Source: Escherichia phage vB_EcoP-CHD5UKE1. Taken from it: a DNA stretch of 64,000 nucleotides. This document shows, piece after piece, positions 31,063 through 31,387 of this stretch (within the stretch, counting starts at the first letter, position 1; every line of letters begins with the position of its first letter). Both the position numbers and the translations under genes were made by a program. Location: sequence record NC_070989.1; one strand, 5' to 3'. A model generated the notes under the pieces. The model searched no databases. It was given only the letters and a program-made list of their open reading frames with translations, and had not been told where the DNA came from.

Positions 31063-31387
31063 CTTTTCTCCAGTGATCAACGAATTGCTGAAACACTTTA
31101 CGGTCAAATGTGAAATTACGAGCAATTCCGCATTCTCTAAAAGTGGCAGGCATATAATCTACATCACCTTCAGATAAAAAAAAAAAAAAAAAAAAAAAAA
31201 AAAAAAAAAAAAAAAAAAAAAAAAAAAAAAAAGCAATTCCGCATTCTCTAAAAGTGGCAGGCATATAATCTACATCACCTTCAGATGTATGATCATAGAC
31301 TTGAATAAGCTTTTTAATCTTATCCTTCTCTCTTCGAGGAAGCATCCTAAATGCCTCCTGAATATCTGTAATGTGTTTGATTTTCAT
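31043..31387 (-). CDS. small hypothetical protein carrying an in-frame 111-nt insertion (poly-Phe plus 18-aa duplication)
   Basis: Without the poly(A)/duplication the ORF encodes ~77 aa; the insertion keeps the frame and adds 19 Phe codons. Confidence 0.4.
   Translation of the reverse strand: MKIKHITDIQEAFRMLPRREKDKIKKLIQVYDHTSEGDVDYMPATFRECGIAFFFFFFFFFFFFFFFFFFLSEGDVDYMPATFRECGIARNFTFDRKVFQQFVDHWRKDGKESL
31121..31286. repeat. 56-57-nt poly(A) tract flanked by perfect ~55-bp direct repeats
   Basis: agcaattccgcattctctaaaagtggcaggcatataatctacatcaccttcagat occurs at 31121-31175 and 31232-31286 with A(56-57) in between. Confidence 0.9.

Follow-up and report, generated by a model that had tools for sequence, protein, structure and literature searches.

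A stretch of phage DNA 64,000 nucleotides in length (hereafter the window), which belongs to a Kuravirus, that is, to the phiEco32/SU10-like coliphages of C3 morphotype, contains a long run of adenines enclosed by two copies of the same sequence, and this raises the question of whether the structure is part of the phage genome or a product of the way in which the genome was put together. Comparison of the window with itself showed that the direct repeat (here called X; AGCAATTCCGCATTCTCTAAAAGTGGCAGGCATATAATCTACATCACCTTCAGAT) is 55 nt long and that its two copies, at 31121–31175 and 31232–31286, are 100% identical. The interval between them, 31176–31231, consists of exactly 56 A and nothing else, and reads as poly(T) on the coding strand of the gene in which it lies. 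The run appears as 57 A since the second copy of X itself begins with an A, so that a division into a repeat of 54 nt and a run of 57 is equally valid. These measurements agree with the original prediction, which had described an A tract of 56–57 nt between perfect direct repeats of about 55 bp. Across the 64 kb the X-A56-X tract is the sole case of a homopolymer of at least 9 nt, and X the sole perfect direct repeat of at least 25 nt; the only other direct repeat of that length is a 27-mer whose copies are 78% identical. A simple calculation puts the expected number of perfect 55-nt repeats in a random 64-kb sequence at ~1e-24.

The tract falls within a small early gene on the minus strand (31043–31387), the open reading frame of which continues uninterrupted through the insert and encodes 114 aa, confirming that the insertion is in frame, as had been claimed. 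The translation also bears out the predicted duplication of an 18-aa segment (SEGDVDYMPATFRECGIA), but corrects the count of 19 Phe codons that went with it: there are 18 Phe (TTT) and one Leu (TTA), which together with the duplicated segment amount to 37 codons, or 111 nt. When the 111 bp were removed, the resulting 77-aa protein, the true product of the gene, matched PHROG 4452 end to end (profile positions 1–72 of 72, E 8.5e-30), whereas in the 114-aa form the match is broken into two stretches. A search for the exact 114-aa product found it nowhere on record.

The 77-aa gene is the equivalent of Bas91_0056, and PHROG 4452 carries the label ‘anti-restriction nuclease’. As a name used in relatives this has a weak basis, namely the PHROG 4452 match of a 77-aa protein for which a Pfam match was sought and none was found. 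The same may be said of the name ‘DNA ligase’ that relatives give to the gene at 30348–30677 (minus strand), a 109-aa protein whose one match, to Nlig-Ia, is weak. Neither protein seems large enough to be the enzyme after which it is named.

A comparison with related genomes, which had been put forward as a check on the tract, returned relatives that have a single 55-mer and no poly(A). A 2-kb query around the tract matched 97 records in the phage collection, almost all of them from Escherichia or Shigella phages. The closest relative, LorandFenyves_Bas91 (PQ850614), is 99.6% identical over the 2 kb locally and 98.7% identical over 24 kb. Its match comprises 1890 bases where the window has 2001, exactly 111 more, and, this gap aside, the two sequences are 100% identical across ~420 nt around the tract. 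When Bas91, ev_rybdy3 and SU10 were aligned to the window, the difference appeared as one clean gap of 111 columns; all three relatives have X in single copy and read ...ATTACG-X-GTATGA... at the site, without the A run. Among the relatives examined at base level, none has an A tract at the equivalent locus.

The gene segment is likewise single-copy in 48 of the 49 phage records that bear it (Bas91 and 47 others). The exception is myPSH1131, where the second hit to the segment is a scrambled partial copy. We considered this phage as an independent case of duplication and rejected it, the record being a patchwork and the second copy a scrambled fragment. The public record of Escherichia phage myPSH1131 (MG983840.1, represented in our set by two loci) contains 17 internal duplications of at least 150 bp, at 88–100% identity; numerous genes in it are truncated, and a second fragment of the 77-aa gene is present in scrambled form. 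Record positions 42101–42157 are one example of this patchwork. Judging by these features, this ‘complete genome’ looks like a set of mixed or mis-joined contigs.

Assemblies made by others give the same picture as the phage records. A ThyX identical to that of the window is encoded in seven contigs from other projects, Logan assemblies among them, and in the three Logan assemblies that span the small early gene the product is 77 aa long, with one X or X core and no A or T run of at least 10 nt at the locus. In a fourth long contig, OR757436.1, the gene is missing. A search for the junction between X and poly(A) in IMG/VR, JGI metagenome contigs and GTDB genome contigs returned no match. The absence of the 111 bp from relatives and independent assemblies, and the restoration of the gene on their removal, support the earlier suspicion of an assembly or library artefact. 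Seen in this light, the tract is very probably an artefact of one kind or another that the phage itself does not carry; as far as the sequence can tell, it is almost certainly a database error rather than biology.

The reading under which the tract would be biological is that of a real and very recent insertion, in which 56 bp of poly(dA:dT) entered a dispensable early gene and duplicated 55 bp of its target. We regard this as highly improbable. The gene does look dispensable, given that it is missing at the equivalent position in OR757436.1, and a private mutation of this sort is compatible with the sequence taken alone. Set against this, there is no cargo, only A between the repeats; repeats and tract are flawless; no A run that could have seeded slippage is present at this site in the relatives; the lengths of the parts are the k and k+1 of an assembler, as described below; and the record shows independent signs of cutting and pasting at the boundary of its terminal repeat. 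Moreover, we know of no insertion mechanism in bacteria or phages that a 55-bp target duplication would match.

Nothing was found in favour of the fallback that the original prediction had offered, a slippage-prone hypervariable tract or an insertion footprint. A slippage-prone contingency tract was rejected, as the relatives read ...TCAGAT|GTATG... without an A run and in related loci no run of A or T reaches 10 nt. The tract does have a superficial likeness to a footprint of target-primed reverse transcription (TPRT), as known from LINEs, SINEs and processed pseudogenes, in that poly(A) lies within perfect direct repeats of the target. TPRT target-site duplications are typically ~7–20 bp, however, whereas the duplication here is 55 bp, equal to the assembler k; no retro-copied sequence stands by the poly(A), and the host genome is that of a virulent coliphage without such machinery. 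A TPRT retro-insertion footprint was rejected on these grounds.

Long, pure poly-dA does have a known biological maker in phage-infected E. coli. This is DRT9, whose product, a protein-primed single-stranded poly-dA, accumulates in phage-infected cells that carry the system and drives abortive infection (PMC12483538), and to that extent it speaks for a real insertion. However, integration of this product into phage genomes has not been reported, and DRT9 would be at most a source of contaminating poly(A) reads. That the tract is a genuine recent poly(dA:dT) insertion, possibly captured poly-dA of the DRT9 type or the outcome of a retro-insertion-like event while the phage grew on a defended host, with its match to k and k+1 a coincidence, strikes us as barely credible.

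Turning to the kind of artefact, the lengths of the three parts are those expected from a particular class of assembler. In a de Bruijn graph of the SPAdes type, the vertices are k-mers and the edges are (k+1)-mers. A circular molecule assembled in such a graph is printed as a linear sequence, both ends of which share exactly k bases, and the shortest contig has k+1 bases, which is exactly what the self-loop of a homopolymer gives. The value k=55 is a standard one in SPAdes and the largest that it uses by default when reads are shorter. The arrangement X(55)-A(56)-X(55) fits the pattern k / k+1 / k exactly at k=55; the equally valid division into 54 and 57 would not fit k and k+1. By a rough estimate, which considers lengths of 10–200 and allows for the one-base ambiguity, the probability of a chance match of both lengths to the (k, k+1) of any default k is ~3e-4. 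The preserved reading frame, on the other hand, is uninformative, because 55 + 56 = 2k+1 = 111, which is divisible by 3.

This estimate also bears on damage done after assembly, whether by manual editing, by a bug in formatting or merging, or as a planted decoy. In favour of such damage, the source record turned up in none of the collections searched, among them those of phages, plasmids and complete E. coli genomes. With damage of this kind, however, the lengths of 55 and 56 would be coincidental, and, with a joint match to k and k+1 so improbable by chance, we think such damage very unlikely to be the cause.

A published assembly shows that the two components can arise side by side. For phage 132, a default SPAdes assembly had 55-bp overlapping ends that needed trimming; it also gave a separate 56-bp homopolymer contig, a poly(G) artefact that had to be left out, after which the genome was re-opened in line with a reference (PMC8483715). 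The 55-bp ends, the 56-bp homopolymer contig and the re-opening at a reference correspond to the numbers and steps that we see in the window. The difference lies in how they were handled, since for phage 132 the overlap was trimmed and the poly(G) contig discarded, whereas in the window, where the homopolymer is poly(A), both were seemingly kept and joined. A literature search on ‘56 bp’ poly(A) contigs found this poly(G) case alone.

An IMG/VR scan with A56 provided a wider view of internal poly(A) in assembled viral sequences. It produced no second example of k / k+1 / k in the 31 internal A runs of at least 40 nt among the matches listed, and within that same set only two other contigs, L053 (IMGVR_UViG_2706794495_000003) and L106, both of them prophage-like, have a long poly(A) between two copies of a repeat. 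In these the poly(A) is ~184–187 nt long (L053:1386–1572 and L106:2634–2817) and lies between direct copies of a 25–29-nt site, TTTCTCGCAAACCTGGGTTTAAGCGAC or its reverse complement, which we take to resemble a crossover site of the Hin/Gin/Cin-type invertases. They differ from the window in that repeats of 25–29 nt around ~184–187 A do not correspond to k / k+1, and in that they occupy the expected position of an invertible segment rather than that of a re-circularisation join. The two contigs suggest that poly(A) can fill in for an unresolved region, such as an invertible segment, in assemblies. A further four IMG/VR contigs (L073:5673–5728, L067:1536–1591, L019:1813–1869 and L119) contain internal poly(A) runs, unflanked by repeats, that are exactly 56 or 57 nt long; these runs may be homopolymer edges (k+1 at k=55) that were incorporated into the assemblies.

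Signs that the record was re-opened come from the other end of the window. The window is colinear with positions 13189–77134 of SU10 (KM044272), a linear record that carries an exact 193-bp direct terminal repeat (DTR) at 1–193 and 77135–77327. The last base of the window, in the terminal interval (63921–64000) where the source record itself appears to end, aligns to SU10 77134, one base before the right-hand copy of the repeat, and no part of the 193-bp DTR sequence of SU10 was found in the 64 kb. The chance of a window ending at the DTR boundary by accident is ~1 in 77,000. On this basis the window would make up the final 64 kb of a ~77.2-kb record that starts at the left end of the DTR and holds one DTR copy. 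Since the end of the window abuts the right DTR of SU10, we infer that the record is a circularly collapsed short-read assembly that was re-opened at the reference start, and that the ends of the original contig therefore sit inside the record. X-A56-X is the sole anomaly in the window that fits a join of old contig ends. The possibility that X is itself a physical genome end or DTR was rejected: the Kuravirus DTR is at the SU10 positions given above, and X, relative to SU10, maps to ~44522–44576 (~44.5 kb), far from the physical ends.

We therefore favour an error of genome finishing as the likely origin of the tract, in which a k=55 contig overlap was left untrimmed and poly(A) was joined to it when the genome was re-opened. 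With direct terminal repeats, as in a Kuravirus, the reads would collapse into a circle, and an assembler running at k=55 would print this circle as a linear contig with the 55-nt X at either end; the same run would emit a 56-nt (k+1) poly(A) contig from low-complexity junk reads. The raw contig would have begun at what is now 31232, passed through the end and the start of the present record and finished at 31175, with the poly(A) contig or a poly(A) tail after it. When the genome was rotated to the start of the reference phage, the duplicate X would have gone untrimmed and the poly(A) would have been carried into the join. Copy 1 of X would thus be the redundant overlap, the k-mer at the 3' end of the original contig, and copy 2 the k-mer at its 5' end, although either copy can count as the genuine genomic sequence. 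In a variant of this scheme, two graph-adjacent contigs with an overlap of k would have been strung together with the poly(A) contig in the middle. It is an unusual step to place a separate contig between two ends. Which assembler was used, where the poly(A) came from and in what order the steps were carried out by hand are matters that we infer. The poly(A) reads presumably come from adapter read-through or are low-complexity reads from a four-colour Illumina instrument; it is far less likely that they derive from poly-dA made in a host with DRT9.

The error could instead have formed within the assembly graph, if chimeric or poly(A)-tailed reads created a path from X through a poly(A) self-loop and back to X that the assembler then traversed. 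A single pass through the self-loop of a poly(A) k-mer vertex would also yield about k+1 A, and the restriction of the insert to the window genome is in keeping with such an event. The path requires, however, chimeric reads into and out of poly(A) at both ends of one and the same 55-mer, and by itself it leaves unexplained why X is written twice, whereas the re-opened record already supplies a simpler origin for the duplicated k-mer. An origin within the graph is unlikely in our estimation, and the chimeric or poly(A)-tailed read that the original prediction had named is probably not the source.

As a finishing error, the tract would have no biological importance, and its significance lies in what it does to the record. 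The source record would be wrong by 111 bp, would contain a fictitious 114-aa protein with a run of 18 Phe, and would be missing the second copy of the 193-bp DTR. The packaged genome should accordingly exceed the record by ~193 bp and, at the artefact, fall short of it by 111 bp. A corrected sequence is one without one X and the 56 A (obtained, for example, by deleting 31176–31286), which brings back the 77-aa gene. More broadly, a k-mer, a homopolymer of k+1 and the same k-mer in succession form a simple signature that can be searched for; it could flag the same error in deposited phage and plasmid genomes and could stop such scars from being taken for mobile-element footprints or hypervariable tracts.

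Elsewhere in the window, a segment of ~1.1 kb (52824–53900) stands where SU10 has ~240 bp. It contains a tRNA-Arg(TCT) gene on the minus strand at 52835–52910, which is overlapped by a 140-aa open reading frame on the same strand (52901–53323) with an HNH-like motif, EVDHIDRNKTNDDISNLQILSIENH. The segment is probably a homing-endonuclease insertion adjoining the tRNA.
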